Assembly (NCBI GenBank): GCA_027624915.1 | Contig: JAQBTR010000008.1 | Coordinates: 1-37,080, forward strand | Reading direction: 5' to 3' | Origin: a bacterium | GTDB taxonomy: Bacteria; Patescibacteriota; Minisyncoccia; Ryanbacterales; GWA2-47-10b | DNA length: 37,080 nt | In this document: positions 21,583-35,006 of the stretch, one piece after another | Layout of the letters: the number at the start of each line of letters is the position of its first letter | Position numbering within the stretch: the stretch's first letter is position 1 | Notes under the pieces: model-generated | Told to the model about the DNA's origin: nothing | The model's database searches: none | What the model saw: the letters and a program-made list of their open reading frames with translations, nothing else | Position numbers and translations under genes: made by a program

Positions 21583-22152
21583 TTATGCGTATTTTCTAAT
21601 AACGGCCTTTACGATTCCTCCTACGCGGAGATACTCACGTGGGAATATAGAATCAAAGTTTTTGTTGGCGGGTTTCAGATAAGGTTGACCCCGTTTCGAT
21701 TCGTAATACTTGAGTGTCCAGTCTCCGTCTACTTCGGCAACGACGATGTCTCCTTGCTTGGCAACCGATGCTTGTTCAATTAGTATGCGGTCACCATCAT
21801 GTATACCGGCATCAATCATCGACTCTCCCTTAACTGTCAACATGTAAGTCTCACCAGGTTTTCGTATTAGGAAGTCATCAAGACTAATGGCATCGTTTAT
21901 ATCAGCTATCGCTTCATGTGGAATACCGGCCTCAACAAGTCCTAGCATGGCGACACCTCCGAAGATGTTTTGTGGTATGAGGTGCCCGCCCGAATCCTTT
22001 TCTACCATCCCCTCGTCTACCATATTGTTGATGAGTTTGTAGACGGAGTTTTTAGACTTGAACTTAAACATCTCCATAAATTCTTTGTAGCCTGGCATCC
22101 GACGATGCTCTCTATAAAAACTAACTATCTTTTGTTTGCGCTCTTTATCCAT
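21583..22152 (-). CDS. lexA: LexA repressor (S24 peptidase)
   Basis: wHTH N-terminus, cleavage and catalytic region (VKGESMIDAGIHDGD ... GGIVKAVIRKY). Start set at the first ATG (MDKERKQ); an upstream in-frame TTG at 22227 would add 25 aa. Confidence 0.85.
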   Translation of the reverse strand: MDKERKQKIVSFYREHRRMPGYKEFMEMFKFKSKNSVYKLINNMVDEGMVEKDSGGHLIPQNIFGGVAMLGLVEAGIPHEAIADINDAISLDDFLIRKPGETYMLTVKGESMIDAGIHDGDRILIEQASVAKQGDIVVAEVDGDWTLKYYESKRGQPYLKPANKNFDSIFPREYLRVGGIVKAVIRKYA

Positions 22153-22276
22153 CCCGTTAGTGATAGGTCGTCTGGGACGACCGTATTTGTTTAGTTGGTA
22201 ATTATTGGTTCTAAGTTTTGTTATCAATCCTGCTTTGTGATTTTATATACTAGTCACTAACAGGATCCATGAAAAT

Positions 22277-22585: not shown

Positions 22586-22600
22586 AATGTCCGAATAACG

Positions 22601-22630
22601 AAACAAAAAATCCGGCTACCTAGTAGCCGG
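22601..22630 (-). terminator. rho-independent terminator for the 22616-23137 gene
   Basis: CCGGCTAC-cta-GTAGCCGG; the minus strand is followed by ATTTTTTGTTT. The stop codon lies in the stem. Confidence 0.6.
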
Positions 22631-23137
22631 CTCGATAAGTAGGTTGTGATGAACAAAGTGTACGACGTATGTCCCATCAATTCGTTCTCCAAGATCACTT
22701 AGCGTAAATTGTATGTTTTTGTTGGCTCGTTTTCTGACAGTAATCCATCCTTTGGCGAGCCCAAGTGGGGCGCCATTACCCTCTTGTGAATATGTGTGGG
22801 GGACAAAACATTTTTGTAAGCCCGCGCCTCCATTTGGGTCTGGCTTTCCATGCCTCATGATTTTATCCACGGATAAATCATTATCAAAATCTCCGTCAAA
22901 GAGCTCATACCGTAGTGGTATTATTACGCGACGTTCAAGTAGACGTTCAAACGCATTCCCCGGAAGCGTCCAAACAAATCTCCCGTCATGACCGTCCTTA
23001 ATAGTAAAAAAGCTAAATTTGCCGGCAACATCTTTAACCCAAGCATATTCAATTGATCGTATTCCCTCATGCTTGCCATATAACGAGAGGTGACTAAGAG
23101 CCTCTTCGTCAGTAAGTTTTATTGTTCTTTGGGGCAA
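22616..23137 (-). CDS. hypothetical protein (about 173 aa)
   Basis: Long ORF. Start reassigned to an in-frame TTG 7 nt after a strong SD (AAAGGAGGT), because the track GTG start lies in the T-tract of the upstream terminator. Confidence 0.5.
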   Translation of the reverse strand: MPQRTIKLTDEEALSHLSLYGKHEGIRSIEYAWVKDVAGKFSFFTIKDGHDGRFVWTLPGNAFERLLERRVIIPLRYELFDGDFDNDLSVDKIMRHGKPDPNGGAGLQKCFVPHTYSQEGNGAPLGLAKGWITVRKRANKNIQFTLSDLGERIDGTYVVHFVHHNLLIEPATR

Positions 23138-23169
23138 AAAGCCACCTCCTTTGTTCTTGTGAGATACTA

Positions 23170-23532
23170 TCACAAAAAAGCCCCGAGAAGTTCTCGGGGA
23201 AGGGGCTGGCCACCATCATCATTGGGACCCGTTGTTTCGTGTCTGAGCTTAATTAGTGAGGTTTGGATTTCTTGGAAGTGGATGGAAGCGCGCGGATCAA
23301 AAAACATATCTATATGTCGATCAAGAGCTTCGATACAGGCCTCGAGAAGCTCAAGCGCAACATGAGAGTCTGCAACACCGAGGTGTTCATTCGCGCCTCT
23401 CCAATCATCTAAAGCTTTGAATGCAGAGACGTAAGCATTTCGCGTGTGCTTAATTCCGGCTATTCGTAGGTAGATGACAAGGGTGAAAAACCCCAAAAGA
23501 ACTCCTCCCGTAAGAGCACCCTGAATGGTCAT
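23170..23532 (-). CDS. small single-TM hypothetical protein (GC-rich islet)
   Basis: Start moved to an internal ATG (MTIQGALTGGVLLGFFTLVIYL...) with GGAG 6 nt upstream. The track N-terminus is encoded by the upstream gene's terminator hairpin. Confidence 0.4.
   Translation of the reverse strand: MTIQGALTGGVLLGFFTLVIYLRIAGIKHTRNAYVSAFKALDDWRGANEHLGVADSHVALELLEACIEALDRHIDMFFDPRASIHFQEIQTSLIKLRHETTGPNDDGGQPLPRELLGAFL
23181..23199 (-). terminator. hairpin terminator (CCCCGAGAA-g-TTCTCGGGG) followed by T6 on the minus strand
   Basis: Perfect 9-bp inverted repeat with an A6 run on the plus strand. It overlaps the last codons of the 23170-23532 ORF. Confidence 0.55.
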
Positions 23533-23583
23533 GAGGATCTCCAAATCTTTTCCCAGTCTATGTAGATTATGAGAAAAAGAAAA

Positions 23584-23606
23584 GGGCCCCGCTTTAAGCG
23601 GGGCCG
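23584..23606 (-). terminator. GC-rich hairpin terminator (GGCCCCGCTT-t-AAGCGGGGCC) with the stop codon of the upstream gene in its loop
   Basis: 10-bp stem; the minus strand is followed by CTTTTCTTTTTCTC. Confidence 0.6.
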
Positions 23607-23947
23607 GGGAGGAGGCTTGCTTGGAGTGCGCCACAGATGCGATCGTTCTGTTCAAAAAGATGTCGTGCCATGCTGATGGCTAGGGCGACGTCGTCGGTGT
23701 CGTATGCGTCTCTCATGTGCTGACAACCTCCAAGCCCAAAGAACTTGTGTTCGTCGGGCATGAAATCGTCACGTTCTAGGCGGTCTACTTCTCGCATGTA
23801 GCGATTACGCAAAGGCCTGTACAGCACGAGCATGTCCTCGATGTCCTGACGTCTCAACAGGACGACGACTCTGGGGTCGAGTGGCAGGAATACTACGTCG
23901 GAGCGTTGCCCGACTGGCCAAATTGAGCTGCCAAGTTGTGGTGCCAT
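23594..23947 (-). CDS. hypothetical protein (117 aa) in a GC-rich islet
   Basis: Excellent SD (CCAAGGAGGAGTTTAA-ATG), its own terminator, about 55% GC, no recognisable family. Confidence 0.55.
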   Translation of the reverse strand: MAPQLGSSIWPVGQRSDVVFLPLDPRVVVLLRRQDIEDMLVLYRPLRNRYMREVDRLERDDFMPDEHKFFGLGGCQHMRDAYDTDDVALAISMARHLFEQNDRICGALQASLLPGPA

Positions 23948-24201
23948 TTAAACTCCTCCTTGGAAATGGAACTATGTAAAAAGAGATTAAAACAAAAAGA
24001 GCCACACGTCAACCCCCACATTAATATTTGTATTGTTGTGCTATAAATTTGATGACATAAACCAGGATTTGGCGCGTGTAATGTTTTTGATACAATCTAG
24101 AAATAAGGCACAACAAAAATTCATAATGCAAATATTAGTGCAGGGGGTCAAGAGCTCTTTTTGTTTTGAATTTAGAGTAGAGAAAAATTTTTGAGAATAC
24201 T

Positions 24202-24555
24202 CTACTTTGAGTGGTTAACGCAGGTTCGTGCCGCTGGATTTGCCCGAAGACGATTTTCTAGAATTTCTTCTTTCCCAACCTCGCACGTACCATATGTTCC
24301 ATCCTTGATACGGTTTAAAGCACCATTGATATTTACGAGTTTTGCCTCAAGTACGGCATTCACACCAAGTGCGTTACTGTATTCTTCAACCTCGTCCGCC
24401 ATATCGTTTTTGTCAGAGGGCTCAACATTAAGATCCGGGTATTTTGCCTCCCAGTCGTTAGGGTTATCTGGATTTTGCCGAGAGACAGAAGATAGAGTTT
24501 CCTCTATAGTTTTCTTCTCATCAAGCAAAAGCTTTTCAAATTCTTTTACATTCAT
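24202..24555 (-). CDS. DksA/TraR-family-like protein (degenerate C4 finger)
   Basis: Coiled-coil N-terminus and a C-terminus (GTYGTCEVGKEEILENRLRANPAARTCVNH) resembling the DksA/TraR zinc-finger region with only 2 Cys. Confidence 0.5.
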   Translation of the reverse strand: MNVKEFEKLLLDEKKTIEETLSSVSRQNPDNPNDWEAKYPDLNVEPSDKNDMADEVEEYSNALGVNAVLEAKLVNINGALNRIKDGTYGTCEVGKEEILENRLRANPAARTCVNHSK

Positions 24556-28572: not shown

Positions 28573-29463
28573 GTGGTGAGCATAGATAAGGCATTACGGG
28601 AATTTTTAGAGGATTTGGAGCTCGAAAAGGGCAGAAGTCAAAAAACGATTCAAAACTATGAGCATTATTTGGCGCGGTTCTTTCGTGAGGCCAAAATAAA
28701 GAAGCCTTCGGACATAACTGACGCGCGAGTACGCGAATTTAGGCTCAAATTAAATCGAACAGGACTTGGGGCTAAGACGCGAAACTATCACTTGATAGCT
28801 TTGCGCATGTTTTTAAAATATTTGGTGAAACGCGAAATTCTCTCACTCGCACCTGATCGCATTGAGCTTGCGAAACTTCCAGATCGAGACATAGATATCC
28901 CCCCATCTGAAGATCTTGATAGACTTTTAAAAGCACCAGATACAAATACGCTTCAAGGACTACGGGACCGTGCAATATTGGAAATGCTTTTTTCTACGGG
29001 TCTTCGCGTGTCAGAACTCACCTCTCTTGATTGTGACACCATCGATTTTTCACGAGACGAATTTTCTATACGCGGTAAGGGTAGCAAGGTGCGAATTGTT
29101 TTTTTGTCTCCTGACGCCAAGCAGGCATGTCAGGCATACACAAAAAAACGAGAGGACGTTGGGGAGGCGCTTTTTGTTGGCACGCAGAAAAAGAATCAGT
29201 CACGACTTACAACCAGGCAAGTCGAACGACTCGTAGCGCGCTATGCCGTTAAATCAGGAATCCCCGGCAAGGTAACTCCACATACACTACGACATATGTT
29301 TGCGACCGATCTTTTGATGAACGGTGCTGACATTAGGTCAGTTCAGGTATTGCTTGGTCACTCATCAATAACAACAACACAAATATATACTCACATGACA
29401 GACCGCCAGTTGCGGGATGTTCACAAGGCGTTTCATGGGAAGAGGAGACGAAAAACAAGTTAG
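28573..29463 (+). CDS. tyrosine site-specific recombinase, XerC/XerD family
   Basis: 296 aa with an N-terminal core-binding domain and catalytic R...HxxR...Y (LRHMFATDLL ... TQIYTHM). GTG start 4-7 nt after an extended -10 (TGgTACAAT), so possibly leaderless. Confidence 0.85.
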   Translation: MVSIDKALREFLEDLELEKGRSQKTIQNYEHYLARFFREAKIKKPSDITDARVREFRLKLNRTGLGAKTRNYHLIALRMFLKYLVKREILSLAPDRIELAKLPDRDIDIPPSEDLDRLLKAPDTNTLQGLRDRAILEMLFSTGLRVSELTSLDCDTIDFSRDEFSIRGKGSKVRIVFLSPDAKQACQAYTKKREDVGEALFVGTQKKNQSRLTTRQVERLVARYAVKSGIPGKVTPHTLRHMFATDLLMNGADIRSVQVLLGHSSITTTQIYTHMTDRQLRDVHKAFHGKRRRKTS

Positions 29464-29535
29464 GGAAATATCCACGATCTAATCCAGATGGTTATTATAT
29501 AAACCGCTCAATCAGAAGCTTATATTTCCCTAACT
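29458..29535. repeat. 14-bp inverted repeat (AGTTAGGGAAATAT / ATATTTCCCTAACT) flanking a 50-bp spacer at the xer stop codon
   Basis: Read directly; the arms are perfect reverse complements. Confidence 0.5.
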
Positions 29536-29657
29536 TGTTTTTCTTGGAGTGACGCGACTCAATAAAAAATGAAAAAGTAAATGGTTTTTATTTTGTGAGG
29601 GCGAAAACAAATTAAGAAATAATTTGAAGCAGAAAAACTCTACATTTCATTCTTCAT

Positions 29658-29695
29658 AATTTCCTTAACTATGATGCATCGTAGTTAAGGAAATT
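29658..29695. repeat. 38-bp near-perfect palindrome AATTTCCTTAACTA-TGATGCATCG-TAGTTAAGGAAATT (dif- or att-like candidate)
   Basis: 14-bp perfect arms around a palindromic 8-bp core GATGCATC with one T/G asymmetry. It lies at the boundary between AT-rich backbone and the GC-rich island. Confidence 0.5.
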
Positions 29696-29740
29696 GTAAA
29701 TCTATAAAGGGGATATCTATTTTTTAAAAAATGAAACGGG

Positions 29741-29763
29741 CCCCGATGAAGCTGGGGCCCGAG
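29741..29763 (-). terminator. GC hairpin (GGGCCCC-n9-GGGGCCC) followed on the minus strand by a T-rich tract
   Basis: Preceded on the plus strand by TTTTTTAAAAAATGAAAC; terminator for the 29879-30115 gene. Confidence 0.45.
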
Positions 29764-29878
29764 ACGGTGTGCTACCCACTGGGTTAGCATCCGGCTTTAC
29801 GTGAGCGAATTTTGGTCGCTCGTTATTCAATTTTTTTGTACGCTGCTCAAAAGAGTCAGCGTCGGGGGTTTGGGTGGA

Positions 29879-30115
29879 TCAGTGGGTGCAGAGAACGCGC
29901 TCGGCTTCGCGGACGTCTTCCGGGTTGATGTTGTGCTCACGGAGCACGACCTCAGCGGCGCGAACGGGGTTGTCGATTCCCATCGCGAGACACCGGAGAT
30001 TCCAGTGAGTCGAGACGAGCATGCCGTCCCGATCCCGTGGATGCATCCGCAGGATGTTCACGGCGGTCTCGACGCACGTACGCTCTCGGCCTCGGATACC
30101 CTGAGAAATGGTCAT
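29879..30115 (-). CDS. small hypothetical protein (78 aa) in the GC-rich island
   Basis: SD AGGGAG 9 nt before the ATG (MTISQGIRG...); about 60% GC. The overlapping plus-strand ORF was judged a shadow ORF. Confidence 0.4.
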   Translation of the reverse strand: MTISQGIRGRERTCVETAVNILRMHPRDRDGMLVSTHWNLRCLAMGIDNPVRAAEVVLREHNINPEDVREAERVLCTH

Positions 30116-30237
30116 TCCACTATTCTCCCTATGACGTTTTGGTGTCGCCCCCTGCGACACGTCAGAAACTACTAAAAAGCATTATAGCACAAGGGTTTTC
30201 AGCCGTCAAGCTCTGTAGCTGAAAATCCTTACCAGGC

Positions 30238-30266
30238 TTGACATTTAGATATATTTATGATATAAT
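30238..30266 (+). promoter_or_regulatory. perfect-consensus sigma70 promoter TTGACA-17-TATAAT
   Basis: TTGACA at 30238-30243, a 17-nt spacer, TATAAT at 30261-30266. It precedes a roughly 110-nt 5' UTR holding two hairpins (CTTTGACT...AGTCAAAG; AGCCGC-GAAA-GCGGCT) before the SPFH gene. Confidence 0.6.
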
Positions 30267-30384
30267 CCTGTCAGGTTAATACGGTATGTTCTTTGACTCG
30301 TCCTATAAGTCAAAGTGGAAATTAAAACCAAAAACGTAGCCGCGAAAGCGGCTCAAAAACAACGAAAGGAACAGGTAGAAGATA

Positions 30385-31527
30385 ATGAGTATGGGAATGC
30401 AGGTCGCATTAACGATTCTCACAATCTATGCCCTCTTTCTTCTGGTGGCTGGCGTCGGCATAGCGCTTCTCATGCACTATGCCGATGACGAACTCAAGAA
30501 GATTCGAGATCTTCTCCATACGGCAGTGGTCACGATTCGTTTGAAGGGCGTCGTGTTTCTCGTTCAAGAGAATCACTCGATTGTCTTTCGGAACGTATGG
30601 GCGACTGATATCGGTCACCTCGCAGGCTGGGTCTCTAAGACCATCGGAACGCGCGGGATCGCCAAACCTCTCTGTAGAAGAGAGAAGTGCCCTTATGAGG
30701 GCACAGATGCATGCACTGATGAACACCACCTAGGACTCGGCCCTCTCAAGTATAAGATTAGAGCCCCTGTCTATCTCACCGGCCCACAGCAGGGTCGTCC
30801 AGGGTCGGTCAAGCAGTCTACCTACAACGAGATTGCTGCCGGCACGACGAGGCAGTACAGAGGTTACAAGATCAAGCGCGAGGGGTATCGATTCTGGGTG
30901 CCGTCAGTGTGGCAGGATCTCTTCGACGTTGTGAACATGCGTCCCGTGTCGGTTTCGGTCGACCGGGATTACGAGTTCAACACTGGAGATAACCAGGAGG
31001 TTCTCATTAAGTTCCGGTACGTGTCGCAGGTTATCGACCCAATCGCTTTTCAAGTAAGGGTCGGTAATGATCAGCGCGCGGCCTGGGAGAAGGAGCAGGT
31101 CATCTCAATGATTCAGCAGATGACCAACGCCTACACGGCCGATCAGTTGACTGGCGCTGACGATGTTCAGCTCGGTTCGCTCGGTCAGATGCTTGCGGAG
31201 GTGTACAACTTCTTCATGATGGCCTACGGGCTTCAGGTTTCCGTAATTCAGATTCTTCAGATCTCACCGCCAACCGTAATCGCAGAGCGTGCAGCCCATG
31301 TACGTGCGGCTCAGCTTGCACGGAAAGCGGCGAAAGCCGAGGGTGAGAGGATCAGGGAGATCGTCGATATCACGGGCGCAACGCCCGATGAAGTCGTGCG
31401 CGCCATCAGCTATCAGAATATGGTCAACCAGGGTTCTACCACGTTCATCAGGGTCGCGGAAGCGATTAAGGATGAGTTTGCGGCGGGACGCCGAGAGGCC
31501 AAGAAAGCAAAGGAGAAGGCAGCATGA
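30385..31527 (+). CDS. SPFH/band-7 (stomatin/HflK-like) domain membrane protein with a Cys-containing insertion
   Basis: N-terminal TM, then SPFH-like segments (VVFLVQENHSIVFRNV ... GLQVSVIQILQISPPTVIAERAAHVRAAQLARKAAKAEGERI) and a coiled-coil tail. The roughly 90-aa insertion contains CRREKCPYEGTDAC. Confidence 0.55.
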   Translation: MSMGMQVALTILTIYALFLLVAGVGIALLMHYADDELKKIRDLLHTAVVTIRLKGVVFLVQENHSIVFRNVWATDIGHLAGWVSKTIGTRGIAKPLCRREKCPYEGTDACTDEHHLGLGPLKYKIRAPVYLTGPQQGRPGSVKQSTYNEIAAGTTRQYRGYKIKREGYRFWVPSVWQDLFDVVNMRPVSVSVDRDYEFNTGDNQEVLIKFRYVSQVIDPIAFQVRVGNDQRAAWEKEQVISMIQQMTNAYTADQLTGADDVQLGSLGQMLAEVYNFFMMAYGLQVSVIQILQISPPTVIAERAAHVRAAQLARKAAKAEGERIREIVDITGATPDEVVRAISYQNMVNQGSTTFIRVAEAIKDEFAAGRREAKKAKEKAA

Positions 31528-32996
31528 CCAAGGTCAAGAATTTCTTCAACGTAACCGGCAGGTTTTTACTTCGGTACCCCCTGCTGGTTGGATTCCTCGT
31601 AGTACTTCCGTTCCTCTTCGCCCTTGTATATGCCACCTGGGGTGGCATCGGGGCGGTCTTCTCGGGGGGTGCTGGCACTGGGCCTGTACCTATCCCCACG
31701 AGAGTTCTCACCTCGCTTGAGTGGGGCTGGATGGTGGCACACGTCGCCCTCTTTGCCCTCTTCTACTGTGTGTATCGTCACCGTCCATCACCCCCTGAGA
31801 AGGAATTCGATAAGGATGGTGAGCCGAGGCTTCATTACCTCGGTACAGATGGTTGGGAGCTTCGAAACGAGTACTGCCGGAAAATCCGTGAGACTCTCAA
31901 CATCCTCGTTGGATATTTCATCATCCTCTGGGCGGTGGAGCTATCCTCGTGGCCGATCAGTTCGTTCTGGCTGCCACGATGGCCGGTCGCCACAGCATGG
32001 ATCCTCATCACTCCGCTCGTTGCGGGAGGATTCCTTTCCTACTACGTCGACTGGACGAAGTCGTCTAGTCGACGAGCCCTTTGGGCATTCTATGCAGTAG
32101 CGTCCGTGATTTTTGCTCTGTCCCTCACCTTCGGGTGGATGGATGCACAAGATCCTGTCGCTGAAACACTGCGTCAGACCAAAGGCGAAATTCTCGAAGC
32201 AAGGTTAACTCCTTTAGAGGAAAAAGCCGAGCTCCTTCGTGAAGCATGGCGCGCAGGTTTCATCACTGAAGATGAGGCCGTAGAAAAGATCGCGAAGCTT
32301 CGCGAGATTCACCAGAGCGCCGAAAAGAAGTTCGGCAACCCCAACCCGCTTGCGGATGTTGTGGTTCCTGAGGCAGAAAAAGTCCTCGGCAAAGGTGGCG
32401 AATACATTGGCGGCGAGTTTTCCGAATTCTTCGGACCCTTCGTCAATGCCACCCCGTCGGAGTATCGGTACCTATGGTTTAACCCTTTCTTCTGGGGCCT
32501 TCTGATCATCGCTATCGCGGTCTTCGCGAAACTGGCGACCCGGTATGAAGGTGTTCGTACATTCATCGCGTGGATGACATTCCTTGCGGTCTGCCTTGTT
32601 CTTATCATCGTGTTTACAGCAGCTCATGAGCCAGGTGGACTCGCTCGGTTCAGCTCGGAGAAACAGACAGAGACACGAACAGATGCCGACTCTGTTGCCT
32701 TGTTCAGTCATCATCGAACCTTCGACATCAAGTCGGGAGATCGTATCCGAGTTTGGCCGAAAAATCATCCAAGGCCAAACATCACCGGAGGTGACGGGAT
32801 GTGGTATGTAACGTATGCCGCAGGGTCAACGATTCTCGGCTTCGAAATGTACCGATCGGGTGGCATGGTCGTTCAGGCTGGCACCGTTTCCGGGCCAGCA
32901 CAACTTCCAAACAATTTTTACGAGATGGATTTGGTGGCACAGAAAGGCGCTGTCAGATTCACTCTCCACTGCAATGGCTGTACCTACAGCCAATAG
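31524..32996 (+). CDS. polytopic membrane protein (about 8 TM) with a C-terminal soluble beta-rich domain; SPFH operon partner (NfeD-like role is speculative)
   Basis: ATGA overlap with the SPFH gene, many hydrophobic helices, and a C-terminal domain (FDIKSGDRIRVWPKNHPRP...). Confidence 0.5.
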   Translation: MTKVKNFFNVTGRFLLRYPLLVGFLVVLPFLFALVYATWGGIGAVFSGGAGTGPVPIPTRVLTSLEWGWMVAHVALFALFYCVYRHRPSPPEKEFDKDGEPRLHYLGTDGWELRNEYCRKIRETLNILVGYFIILWAVELSSWPISSFWLPRWPVATAWILITPLVAGGFLSYYVDWTKSSSRRALWAFYAVASVIFALSLTFGWMDAQDPVAETLRQTKGEILEARLTPLEEKAELLREAWRAGFITEDEAVEKIAKLREIHQSAEKKFGNPNPLADVVVPEAEKVLGKGGEYIGGEFSEFFGPFVNATPSEYRYLWFNPFFWGLLIIAIAVFAKLATRYEGVRTFIAWMTFLAVCLVLIIVFTAAHEPGGLARFSSEKQTETRTDADSVALFSHHRTFDIKSGDRIRVWPKNHPRPNITGGDGMWYVTYAAGSTILGFEMYRSGGMVVQAGTVSGPAQLPNNFYEMDLVAQKGAVRFTLHCNGCTYSQ

Positions 32997-33014
32997 GAGG
33001 ACGAGGGACTACAT

Positions 33015-33047
33015 GGGGCGTTGCGCCAAGTCGCAACGCCCCTTTTT
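33015..33047 (+). terminator. rho-independent terminator ending the SPFH operon
   Basis: GGGGCGTTGC-n8-GCAACGCCCC followed by TTTTT. Confidence 0.8.
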
Positions 33048-33124
33048 CATACCCAAAATTTTTTCGATAAAAGACTACCCATGAGGTATAATTTATGATA
33101 AAGTCGGTTCTACGGTTTTATTAA

Positions 33125-33196
33125 AGCGCTCGTGGTGAAATGGATATCACGACTGGCTTCGGACCAGTTGTTGGGGGTTCGAGTCCCTCCGAGCGC
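33125..33196 (+). tRNA. tRNA-Arg (anticodon TCG), no encoded CCA
   Basis: Manual cloverleaf: acceptor GCGCTCG/CGAGCGC, D-stem GTGA/TCAC, anticodon stem ACTGG/CCAGT with loop CTTCGGA, T-arm GGGGG-TTCGAGT-CCCTC, discriminator A. Confidence 0.75.
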
Positions 33197-33243
33197 ACAA
33201 CAATTAAAATAGCCGGTATTAATACCGGCTATTTTAATTGTTG
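33196..33243. terminator. 48-bp perfect palindrome (22-bp arms) acting as a bidirectional terminator after tRNA-Arg
   Basis: ACAACAATTAAAATAGCCGGTA...TACCGGCTATTTTAATTGTTGT followed by a T-rich tract. Confidence 0.6.
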
Positions 33244-33316
33244 TTTATTGCGGGACTCGAAGGGATTTTCTCGCCATTGGTTCAAGAGAAAATCCCCGGG
33301 CGAGCTGATGGAGCGA

Positions 33317-33333
33317 GCGAGTCCCTCCGAGCG
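33317..33333 (+). repeat. 17-nt exact direct repeat of the tRNA-Arg 3' end (CGAGTCCCTCCGAGCGC); att-like scar
   Basis: Identical to 33179-33195. No complete tRNA can be folded around the second copy. Confidence 0.6.
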
Positions 33334-33466
33334 CCATTTATGCATAATTGTAAGGAGTGCAACAACTATACAATTAGCGACTCCTGACCAAGCCCCCCGA
33401 GTCCTTACAACAACACTTGAAAACTTGCTACAATACTATAGAATTACAAGCTATTAAGAATTAGAC

Positions 33467-33551: not shown

Positions 33552-35006
33552 ATGGAAATACCAAAAGAGATTCTCTCTATAATAAATACGCTCGAAAAGG
33601 CAGATTTCGAGGCTTTTGTCGTTGGCGGGAGCGTGCGTGATATTCTTATGGGCCGAAAGCCAAAGGATTGGGACATAGCAACAGATGCCCCACCAGAGGA
33701 AATTGTTAAACTCTTCCCCGATTCAATGTACGAGAACAAATTTGGCACTGTTAGTATTTTTCCAAAGAATGTTTCTGACCCAGCACTTGAGATGGTCGAA
33801 GTAACCCCCTACCGCGTTGAATCTAACTATTCAGACAAGCGTCATCCAGACAAAGTAGAATTTGGTAAAAGCCTAGAAGAAGATCTTTCGCGCAGAGACT
33901 TTACAATTAACGCGCTCGCCCTCAATGTCAAGACAGACGAGGTTGTTGATTTATTTCAAGGCAAAAAAGATTTTAAAGACGGGTTGATTCGTGCGGTTGG
34001 CGATCCAGAGGAGCGGTTTGAAGAAGATGCCTTACGTATCATGCGCGCACTCCGATTGTCAGCTGAACTCGGTTATGCAATTGAGCCAAAGACAAAAGAA
34101 GCGATAACTAACAAGGTTAAACTCCTAAGATTTGTATCCAAAGAACGAATTAGGGATGAGTTTTCCAAAATAATTGCCTCCTTCGAGCCACACTACATTC
34201 TTGATCTTATGAGAGAGCTCGGCATCATGAGTCTTGTACTACCCGAGCTCGAAGAAGGATTTGGTGTTGGTCAGAATAAACATCATGTATACACGGTTTG
34301 GGAACACAATCTTTTTGCGCTCAAGTATGCCGCCGAACAGCATTGGTCTCTTGAGGTGCGCATGGCGGCCTTACTGCATGACATAGGTAAACCCAGAAGT
34401 AAGCGTGGAGAAGGCCACGATTCTACTTTTTATGGGCACGAGATTGTTGGCGCCAAAATGACTCACACCATACTCACACGACTTAAATATTCAAAGGCTT
34501 TTATTGATAAGATCACCAAGCTTGTTCGTTACCACCTCTTTTATTACAACGTAGATGAGGTTGGAGAAGCTTCAGTAAGGCGTCTTATTCGTAAGGTTGG
34601 CCCAGAGGATATGGAAGATCTTATTCGTGTTCGTTTTTGTGACAGGATTGGGTCTGGCGTACCAAAAGCCGAGCCATATAAGTTGCGACACTTCCGTTTT
34701 GTTATAGAAAAGCTTTCTCGCGACCCCATCTCGGTAAAGATGCTCAAGATTACAGGAGAGGATGTGATGAAGGCAACAGAGTTAAAGCCCGGGCCAAGGG
34801 TCGGCATGCTTTTGAACGCACTTTTTGAAGAAGTTTTGGATGACCCAAAGAAAAACAAAAAAGCGACGCTCACCCGTCGCGTAAAGGAACTCGCTGAACT
34901 AAAGGATAGTGAATTAAAAAAGATGGCAGATGAGGCCAAAAACAAATCAGCAGGACTCGAAGAAGAAGAAGTCAAAAAAATCAAAGGCAAGCATAAGGTT
35001 AAGTAA
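33552..35006 (+). CDS. cca: CCA-adding tRNA nucleotidyltransferase (class II, with HD domain)
   Basis: Pol-beta NT motif (FVVGGSVRDILMGRKPKDWDIATDA), RDFTINALA, and an HD domain (LLHDIGKP); Lys-rich C-terminal tail. Confidence 0.9.
   Translation: MEIPKEILSIINTLEKADFEAFVVGGSVRDILMGRKPKDWDIATDAPPEEIVKLFPDSMYENKFGTVSIFPKNVSDPALEMVEVTPYRVESNYSDKRHPDKVEFGKSLEEDLSRRDFTINALALNVKTDEVVDLFQGKKDFKDGLIRAVGDPEERFEEDALRIMRALRLSAELGYAIEPKTKEAITNKVKLLRFVSKERIRDEFSKIIASFEPHYILDLMRELGIMSLVLPELEEGFGVGQNKHHVYTVWEHNLFALKYAAEQHWSLEVRMAALLHDIGKPRSKRGEGHDSTFYGHEIVGAKMTHTILTRLKYSKAFIDKITKLVRYHLFYYNVDEVGEASVRRLIRKVGPEDMEDLIRVRFCDRIGSGVPKAEPYKLRHFRFVIEKLSRDPISVKMLKITGEDVMKATELKPGPRVGMLLNALFEEVLDDPKKNKKATLTRRVKELAELKDSELKKMADEAKNKSAGLEEEEVKKIKGKHKVK

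Follow-up and report, generated by a model that had tools for sequence, protein, structure and literature searches.

A GC-rich SPFH cassette with an orphan membrane partner between xer and tRNA-Arg in a Ryanbacterales genome

The stretch of DNA analysed here (the window) comprises 37,080 nucleotides (nt) of contig JAQBTR010000008.1, from a bacterium of the Ryanbacterales (Patescibacteriota; assembly GCA_027624915.1). Between a xer recombinase gene and a tRNA-Arg gene it holds a 3.3-kb GC-rich segment (29740-33050), which encodes an SPFH/Band-7 protein and a polytopic membrane protein on the plus strand and a 78-aa open reading frame (ORF) on the minus strand. A first-pass annotation had singled out this segment as an island possibly acquired from a high-GC donor. 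We compared it with 160 related loci (labels such as L001 denote loci) and find that the place where it lies is taken by different genes, or by none, in the relatives.

Genes and signals of the segment

The first gene of the plus-strand operon (30385-31527) encodes a divergent SPFH/Band-7 protein of 380 aa. The Pfam Band_7 model (PF01145) matches it with 43 bits against a cut-off of 23.6 (E=6.8e-11), aligning aa 160-321 to profile positions 19-173 of 176, and the SPFH identity first assigned to it therefore holds. Hydropathy gives a single hydrophobic segment, an N-terminal transmembrane (TM) stretch at aa 7-30, and the SPFH domain is followed by an Ala/Glu/Lys-rich helical region; N-terminal anchor, SPFH domain and C-terminal helical region, the architecture looked for in an SPFH protein, are thus all present. 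The sole PDB match is E. coli QmcA, weak at E=0.011. The alignment extends through aa 296-342 (PPT..AERAAHVRAAQLARKAAKAEGERIREI), an Ala/Glu-rich helix after the SPFH domain, and the AlphaFold2 model places helices, at low confidence, at aa 296-379. No NCBIfam subfamily model matches the protein, and in a word-indexed search of 5.8e9 clustered proteins it finds only itself.

After the first SPFH strand, some 80-90 aa (residues 73-160; 30601-30864, plus strand) form a putative insertion that carries C97, C102, C110, H114 and H115. If aa 73-150 are deleted, Band_7 aligns from profile position 3 instead of 19 and the score moves from 43.0 to 45.1 bits; SPFH proteins of relatives (those of the L103 type) match profile positions 2-174 without a gap. 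The Cys-containing insertion of about 90 aa proposed earlier is therefore plausible, and its Cys and His residues are there, but the 2-bit gain supports it weakly. The insertion matches nothing in the PDB or Pfam. By the positive-inside rule, both it and the SPFH domain are predicted to be cytoplasmic.

The second gene (31524-32996, plus strand) overlaps the first by ATGA, as originally read, with AAGGAGAAGG ahead of the overlap, and has its own AAGGAG Shine-Dalgarno sequence. Because of this overlap and the strong Shine-Dalgarno sequence, the two proteins are probably made together. The product is an orphan polytopic membrane protein of 490 aa (the partner), in which hydropathy finds seven TM helices; the eight helices of the first count appear only at a laxer threshold, while its polytopic nature and its soluble, beta-rich C-terminal domain stand. 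A charged helical loop of about 110 aa occupies aa 204-316, and the C-terminal domain, of 95-125 aa and predicted to be rich in beta strands, ends in CNGC. The N-terminus and three short loops (aa 84-123, 174-184 and 336-345) are rich in K/R, and for this reason the positive-inside rule predicts an N-in, C-out topology with both the helical loop and the C-terminal domain facing outward.

The partner, too, finds only itself among the 5.8e9 proteins by the word-indexed search. An exhaustive HMMER search of 1.84e9 representatives returned one marginal match, to a CUB repeat (E=6.8e-4); this reaches the first third of CUB repeats in an animal protein and does not continue across the domain, hhalign gives 61% probability over 37 columns only, and we judged it insufficient for a CUB relationship. 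Pfam, NCBIfam, PHROG, PADLOC and the PDB hold no match to the protein. The suggestion of an NfeD-like or OB-fold C-terminus finds no support in the sequence: no NfeD (PF01957) signal appears for the whole partner at E<=0.1 or for its C-terminal 113 aa at E<=10, and no NfeD structure in the PDB matches. A Foldseek search of the PDB with a poor model of the partner gave nothing at E<=0.001.

The segment comprises two divergent transcription units with an AT-rich promoter region (39-41% GC) between them. The promoter pair (30181-30266) consists of TTGACG-17-TATAAT on the minus strand (30209-30181; 11 of 12 matches in the promoter scan) and TTGACA-17-TATAAT on the plus strand (30238-30266; 12 of 12), both with an extended TG, and the second is the perfect promoter that the first-pass annotation had pointed out. 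The 118-nt leader of the SPFH operon (30267-30384, plus strand) contains a 6-bp hairpin with a GAAA loop at 30338-30353. This much of the structured leader of about 110 nt proposed at first exists, but the leader folds no better than its shuffles (z=-0.96) and matches no Rfam family, and on these two grounds we rejected a riboswitch or structured leader. The operon ends in a strong intrinsic terminator (33015-33050, plus strand; hairpin 33015-33042), with an 11-bp stem of nine GC pairs followed by TTTTT; it was correctly noted ahead of tRNA-Arg, and it forms the right edge of the GC rise.

The 78-aa orphan ORF on the minus strand (29879-30115; NCBI O2794_02885; GC 62%) is likewise confirmed as a candidate gene, and it has, besides the minus-strand promoter, a GGGAGA Shine-Dalgarno sequence 8 nt upstream of its ATG and a terminator hairpin (29740-29765, minus strand; GGGCCCCAGCTTCATCGGGGCCC then TTTCATTTTTT) at the left edge of the GC rise, where the terminator scan reports a terminator-like match at 29752-29740. 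The ENA pipeline calls an overlapping 97-aa plus-strand ORF instead, and both calls are singleton clusters. The 78-aa product, which matches nothing in Pfam, NCBIfam, PHROG, PADLOC, the PDB, phages or plasmids, may be a regulator or may be non-functional. An 83-aa ORF between xer and an SPFH gene in Ryanbacteria was considered as its counterpart and rejected, being AT-rich intergenic DNA with an implausible translation.

Composition and the variable interval between xer and tRNA-Arg

In GC scans at 500 nt and 200 nt the segment stands out as a sharp-edged plateau of 52-60%, which begins near 29740 and ends near 33045. The GC-rich island described earlier is real, but its contrast had been overstated: 29740-33050 has 53.6% GC against 42.3% for the remaining window, not 58-60% against about 40%, and only 200-nt peaks attain 60-63% (maximum of the scan, 63.5%). 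The shift lies mainly at third codon positions, whose GC content (GC3) is 0.75 in the 78-aa ORF, 0.64 in the SPFH gene and 0.59 in the partner gene, compared with 0.26-0.47 (about 0.35) in 29 of the 30 backbone ORFs; the single outlier is 23594-23947 at 0.61. The raw tetranucleotide correlation between the segment and the rest of the window is -0.01, whereas equal-size backbone segments give 0.81-0.95. The Markov-normalised z-score correlation is 0.35, which falls within the backbone range of 0.18-0.49, on a sample of 3.3 kb that is short for such scores. The segment is thus an outlier in GC content, but not clearly one in signature.

A second, milder compositional outlier lies at 22600-24000, with small minus-strand ORFs without Pfam matches (23594-23947, GC 0.56 with the GC3 given above; 23170-23655, GC3 0.46). 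It adjoins a gene for a LexA-like S24 peptidase (21583-22227) and one for a DksA/TraR zinc-finger protein (24202-24555).

To the left, the xer tyrosine recombinase gene seen in the first reading is confirmed at 28573-29463 (plus strand; Phage_integrase E=4e-43, with a SAM-like N-domain), and models of XerC, XerD and XerA all score it at 237-243 bits. Its GC3 of 0.41 is that of the backbone, and it stands beside S15-NYN-PNPase at the same position in dozens of relatives. It lies outside the insert, and we rejected it as an integrase of the segment, since it is a conserved chromosomal neighbour of backbone composition.

Between xer and the segment, what had been taken for one dif-like palindrome is in fact two inverted repeats, which nothing links to dif and which the relatives lack. 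The first (29450-29543) has perfect 22-nt inverted arms around a 50-nt spacer and carries two copies of AGTTAGGGAAAT; its left arm overlaps the xer stop codon, and its right arm repeats, in inverted orientation, the final 14 nt of xer and the 8 nt downstream. At this position the relatives have only short GC-rich terminator hairpins. The second (29653-29700) is a near-perfect palindrome, AATTTCCTTAACTATGATG|CATCGTAGTTAAGGAAATT, at the AT-rich left border, and carries two copies of AGTTAAGGAAAT. Common to both is a 12-nt motif, AGTTARGGAAAT. The window has four copies of it where chance would give a mean of 0.64, and all of them stand between xer and the segment, paired off in inverted orientation. 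Among the related loci only L027 shows the motif, in one chance-level match, and nothing similar occurs at the right border; a second, degenerate dif at the other end, the mark of a Xer-exploiting element (IMEX), was not found. The motif of 29450-29700 may be a protein-binding site, a recombination site or the scar of a rearrangement.

The host is a Parcubacterium, and the order PNPase-NYN-S15, Xer, tRNA-Arg(TCG), CCA-adding enzyme is kept in many of the 160 related loci, and in most of those with contigs long enough to show it. The flanking PNPase, NYN, S15, Xer and CCA enzyme are 45-78% identical to their relatives, the best values being 56-63% for PNPase (to Niyogibacteria-like and other Paceibacterota metagenome-assembled genomes) and 73-77% for the CCA enzyme. 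Because this synteny occurs in relatives with and without inserts, xer and tRNA-Arg are fixed neighbours and not parts of the segment, and the role of mobile-island boundaries once given to them falls away. No detectable relatives of the three proteins are encoded at any of the 160 loci, and BLASTN of the segment and its non-coding borders against them gives no match. The expected presence/absence polymorphism is therefore found: the segment is missing from the 160 loci, and the site is empty in four. Two outcomes had been named beforehand as fatal to the original proposal, presence of the segment in all relatives and a lack of profile support for SPFH, and neither was observed.

Among the 20 relatives with co-oriented xer and cca, the distance between these genes runs from 290 to 5540 nt. 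The interval (the slot) is essentially empty, with tRNA-Arg only (290-520 nt), in L091, L007, L003 and L024, and at least six unrelated contents occur in relatives. In L092, L101, L107 and L094 it holds immunoglobulin/macroglobulin (Ig/MG)-like proteins, polytopic membrane proteins and a T4SS_pilin-family protein. In L008, L097 and L114, by-eye reading of the sequences finds DUF559-like endonuclease ORFs, and in L002 and L090, again by eye, metabolic, regulator and toxin-antitoxin-like ORFs, including RelE/ParE-like and antitoxin-like ones. The closest relatives examined (L020, L088, L083 and L087; GC 48-53%, flanking proteins about 75% identical to those of the window) hold orphan sets of two or three genes with no family match. 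Slot GC3 exceeds backbone GC3 in L088 (0.55-0.65 against 0.43), L083 (0.69-0.77 against 0.50) and L087 (0.76 against 0.44), and is weakly raised in L020 (0.55-0.61 against 0.52); more distant relatives show no such rise. The slot partners share a layout only, several TM helices and then a soluble C-terminal domain, with 2-5 Cys in that domain in most.

Some of these cassettes deserve a description of their own. The operon of L092, L101, L107 and L094 encodes an Ig/macroglobulin-like beta protein (for L092, MG4 at E=3e-5), polytopic membrane proteins, one or two in number, whose C-terminal domains contain Cys, and a small protein of the T4SS_pilin family (PF18895 E=5.6e-8). From genome to genome the pilin keeps 64-94% identity, and the genes upstream of it diverge much faster. 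The slot of L020 (5927-7779, minus strand) encodes a 244-aa protein and an overlapping 372-aa protein with eight TM helices, and that of L088 proteins of 196, 199 and 441 aa, the last being 28% identical to a 402-aa slot membrane protein of L087.

An SPFH gene occupies the slot in three relatives, namely L103/L162 (Ca. Ryanbacteria GCA_001819815.1), L108 and L004 (Ca. Niyogibacteria), which represent Ryanbacteria, Niyogibacteria and one metagenome contig. These SPFH proteins match Band_7 at E=8e-14 and are stomatin-like (E about 1e-11 to solved stomatins, with E=8e-12 to PDB stomatin); HflK matches them weakly (E=2e-3), and the window SPFH has no HflK match. An adjacent or overlapping gene for a 362-370-aa polytopic protein without a Pfam domain comes next, before tRNA-Arg and cca, and this family of partners counts just 10 clusters in the 5.8e9 proteins. 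SPFH protein and partner are each 27-30% identical between L103 and L004, whose flanking genes are about 55-60% identical to those of the window. In L004 (4549-4620) and L108 (2463-2535) the tRNA-Arg(TCG) gene points the opposite way from the SPFH cassette and cca, its 3' end toward the cassette, while it is co-oriented in the window, L103, L020 and L088; since its orientation differs among these loci, the tRNA gene has flipped within a conserved neighbourhood.

In the window, tRNA-Arg(TCG) lies at 33126-33198 (plus strand; ARAGORN, Rfam 65.5 bits), outside the insert as its conserved right flank; of 19 related gaps in which tRNAs were sought, 16 have it between xer and cca. We rejected it as the integration target of the segment, which is on the wrong side and without repeats in a layout conserved in relatives. 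Directly downstream, at 33197-33337 (plus strand), is a structured element of four parts: a perfect 24+24-nt palindrome, GGGACTCGAA (the reverse complement of the tRNA T-loop and T-stem), one or two hairpins, and 17 nt that duplicate the 3' end of this tRNA exactly, with CA after them. The architecture recurs in 9-11 of 95 related loci (L007, L024, L031, L049, L076, L077, L083 and L088, with partial forms in L002 and L140). In each the copied segment matches the 3' end of that genome's own tRNA and the inverted segment co-varies, as GGACTCG/CGAGTCC in four genomes and GGATTCG/CGAATCC in four; the 8-bp closing stem has three compensatory pairs. The element matches no Rfam family; it might have been left behind by a miniature integrative element that targets tRNA genes, or might itself be a tRNA-like RNA. 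A leader of cca was considered and rejected, as the element follows the tRNA even where cca points the opposite way.

The gene for the CCA-adding enzyme is one 484-aa ORF in the window (33552-35006) and two ORFs, of 333 and 131 aa, in L001 (12029-13482), the ENA assembly of the same sample. Two mismatches and one gap separate the two assemblies across 15.5 kb, so the cca sequence of one assembly probably contains an erroneous indel or reflects a variant within the population.

Origin and function of the cassette

We lean, with somewhat more confidence than doubt, to the reading that the segment is a lineage-specific cassette in the hypervariable xer-to-tRNA-Arg slot, swapped in from a higher-GC Parcubacterium, in which the SPFH protein, very divergent and perhaps of the stomatin/QmcA type, scaffolds its co-expressed partner. 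The swap would have occurred by recombination and not via a self-mobile element. No direct repeats of at least 9 nt join the borders, in reply to the suggestion that such repeats be sought, and no tRNA-derived repeat lies on the side of the segment. The segment has no mobility genes, the only integrase being the conserved xer, and tblastn against phage and plasmid collections and pattern scans of IMG/VR gave no matches. Among the marks of a genomic island, deviant composition and presence/absence polymorphism were thus seen, and att repeats and element-borne mobility genes were not. The most economical account would be that slot cassettes pass between Parcubacteria, here from a lineage of higher GC to this 42%-GC genome, because the promoters are of host type, the intergenic DNA is AT-rich as in the host, the normalised signature is host-like and GC3 is raised in the slots of the closest relatives. 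Replacement is preferred over divergence in place because relatives with flanking proteins about 75% identical hold unrelated cassettes.

As to function, the SPFH protein would oligomerize through its C-terminal helices into a membrane ring or dome, by analogy with QmcA-YbbJ, FloA-NfeD and HflK/C-FtsH. This ring would enclose, cluster or stabilize the partner, which would in turn supply the specific, probably envelope-exposed activity. Such a pair of scaffold and client is, on these analogies, the best-supported model, in view of the tight translational coupling and of the recurrence of an SPFH gene plus a polytopic partner at the slot.

Several observations pull the other way. The cassette is known from one genome (one sample) only, and the donor is without a candidate, since no search returned a homologue of the cassette proteins. 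Against their counterparts in L103, L108 and L004, the window SPFH and partner show no specific similarity by BLASTP, hidden Markov model (HMM) or hhalign comparison; the HMM and hhalign comparisons used thin profiles and were insensitive, because the SPFH run also missed the known superfamily relation. The recurrence of the pair at the slot could therefore be convergence or chance. The host-like signature was computed on the short sample noted above. Single-sequence AlphaFold2 predictions were unusable as models for both the SPFH protein (predicted local distance difference test, pLDDT, 42.2) and the partner (pLDDT 49.5). The NfeD beta-barrel sits with the cytoplasmic SPFH cage, whereas the C-terminal domain of the window partner is predicted to be extracytoplasmic. 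Since the cassette comes from a single genome, lacks homologues and has yielded only unusable structure models, the practical value of the locus is limited, and its function is predicted from sequence and analogy.

Closest to the first-pass annotation is a recent acquisition from an unrelated high-GC donor, as an island integrated beside xer/dif or tRNA-Arg, which we consider unlikely. Such an event would account for the elevated GC3 (0.59-0.75, compared with about 0.35), for the raw tetranucleotide correlation, and for the absence from 160 related loci with an empty site in four. The unusual inverted repeats with their private 12-nt motif at the left border and the 17-nt duplicate of the tRNA-Arg 3' end nearby also look like traces of integration; but the duplicate is found beyond the tRNA, away from the segment, and accompanies other contents in L007, L024 and L088, xer and tRNA-Arg are conserved neighbours regardless of the insert, and flanking direct repeats and mobility, phage or plasmid genes or matches are absent. 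A distant donor also fits poorly with the host-like normalised signature, the consensus host-type (sigma-70) promoters and the SPFH-plus-partner cassettes at the same slot in other Parcubacteria, and no donor homologue was found in 5.8e9 proteins. What stands of the high-GC donor proposed at first is the absence from relatives; the hypervariable slot, the host-like signature and the raised slot GC3 of relatives weaken the rest.

A shade less probable is an ancient resident locus that diverged in place, its GC3 raised by a locus-specific process such as GC-biased gene conversion at a recombination hot spot, or by selection. The four closest relatives hold unrelated, non-SPFH cassettes, which fits replacement better, and empty sites exist; the account would accommodate the host-like signature and the SPFH-plus-polytopic pairing that Ryanbacteria and Niyogibacteria have at this very syntenic position. 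Fast evolution of the cassettes, as in the 27-30% identity between L103 and L004, could have erased much likeness, yet to the other SPFH cassettes no similarity is left beyond the superfamily level. The raised slot GC3 in three of the four closest relatives (weakly also in L020), despite different proteins, argues for an effect of the place; its lack in distant relatives argues against one.

More doubtful again, though worth stating, is a wider idea. The xer-to-tRNA-Arg(TCG) interval of Parcubacteria might be a dedicated cassette-exchange locus, at which small envelope modules are swapped between lineages next to, and perhaps by, the single housekeeping Xer-type recombinase, with the palindromes of 29450-29700 as recombination sites and a locus-specific rise in GC3. 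The SPFH pair would then be one allele of a 'variable surface' system for interaction with hosts or phages in an episymbiont. If this were true, its modules would include the SPFH cage with a surface-exposed partner, the Ig-like protein with a membrane protein and a T4SS-type pilin, and the toxin-antitoxin or nuclease genes.

For the role in a defence island that had been floated, PADLOC-DB v2 offers no model matching any of the three proteins (E<=1). An anti-phage or conflict module, for example one causing abortive infection by membrane disruption, with the SPFH protein as sensor or scaffold and the partner as polytopic effector, is in our view improbable. The slot does resemble a hot spot for conflict-type genes in L002, L090, L008, L097 and L114, by the by-eye identifications given above, and it combines high turnover with orphan proteins. 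However, the profile searches brought up no effector domain, be it nuclease, protease, NTPase or another kind, our literature search found no established SPFH-centred defence system, and several other slot cassettes look envelope- or pilus-like (T4SS_pilin, Ig/MG-like domains).

An assembly or binning chimera that placed a foreign high-GC fragment in a low-GC contig, which the abrupt GC change within a metagenome-assembled contig might suggest, can be set aside almost entirely, as both junctions recur at 99.98% identity in another 85-kb assembly, made independently from this sample, the GC edges fall exactly on the terminators of complete transcription units, and both flanks are syntenic with relatives in which the slot is variable too.

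Significance and comparison with known systems

SPFH proteins are universal membrane organizers, and we know of no clients for them in most bacteria. Bacteria of the Candidate Phyla Radiation (CPR), whose genomes are minimal, need contact with their hosts at the cell surface. Because pairing with a polytopic protein other than NfeD recurs at one syntenic slot in several lineages of Parcubacteria, a class of CPR-specific SPFH clients is suggested. The slot is also a compact and tractable example of flux in gene content in genomes usually thought to be streamlined and static. New here are the very divergent SPFH protein with its putative insertion, the orphan partner, and the recognition of the hypervariable xer-tRNA-Arg slot in Parcubacteria. 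We regard the SPFH-plus-partner cassette as genuine, and as a moderately unusual form of an operon type that is already known.

The nearest systems by position are the pairs of Ca. Ryanbacteria RIFCSPHIGHO2_02_FULL (partner A3J55_03590; L103/L162) and Ca. Niyogibacteria CG10 (partner COU46_02275; L004). Position and gene order are identical to those of the window, the partner has no Pfam domain, and a strong promoter and a leader precede the SPFH gene. Unlike the window protein, their SPFH proteins have a two-helix hydrophobic hairpin and no insertion; their partner has five TM helices and a 200-aa C-terminal domain, with four Cys in L103, and the GC3 of the L103 cassette is near that of its backbone (0.39 and 0.52 against 0.39). 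The resemblance to the proteins of the window is at the SPFH superfamily level only.

Among characterized operons, the genes of SPFH1, SPFH2 and SPFH5 typically stand with NfeD partners, which can be nearly unrecognizable by sequence (21% identity; PMC2636767). QmcA(YbbK)-YbbJ, PH1511-PH1510 and FloA-NfeD resemble the window in that an anchored SPFH protein is co-transcribed with a membrane protein whose N-terminal TM helices are followed by a soluble, all-beta C-terminal domain. Among solved structures the window SPFH matches QmcA alone, and the slot SPFH proteins of relatives match both stomatin and QmcA; compared with QmcA-type proteins, the window SPFH has the extra Cys/His-containing segment of about 80-90 aa. 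Short NfeD proteins have 140-150 aa and three hydrophobic stretches (PMC2636767), whereas the window partner has 490 aa, about seven TM helices and a 110-aa helical loop, and, in contrast to stomatin-type SPFH1-NfeD operons, it gives no NfeD (PF01957) or ClpP signal. Since it fails the NfeD sequence test and differs in size and predicted topology, we regard it as a protein that works like an SPFH operon partner and not as a member of NfeD.

SPFH proteins are described as forming rings or domes that abut the membrane (PMC12624060), and for QmcA-YbbJ a cage built from 26 heterodimers of SPFH and NfeD proteins is given (Tan et al. 2024, cited in PMC13086221). The HflK/C-FtsH complex offers the same working model, an SPFH ring or dome enclosing a polytopic or membrane-anchored client, but the window partner has no FtsH-like AAA or protease domain, and the operon has a single SPFH gene, not a K/C pair. 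For the slot as a whole, the cell-wall-associated island of Haloquadratum walsbyi (PMC4535781) is a fitting parallel, with a fixed site, alternative sets of envelope genes and no mobility genes. The comparison with such flexible islands is here one between species and genera of uncultured Parcubacteria and not between strains, the cassettes measure 1-5 kb, and the deviation is toward higher GC.

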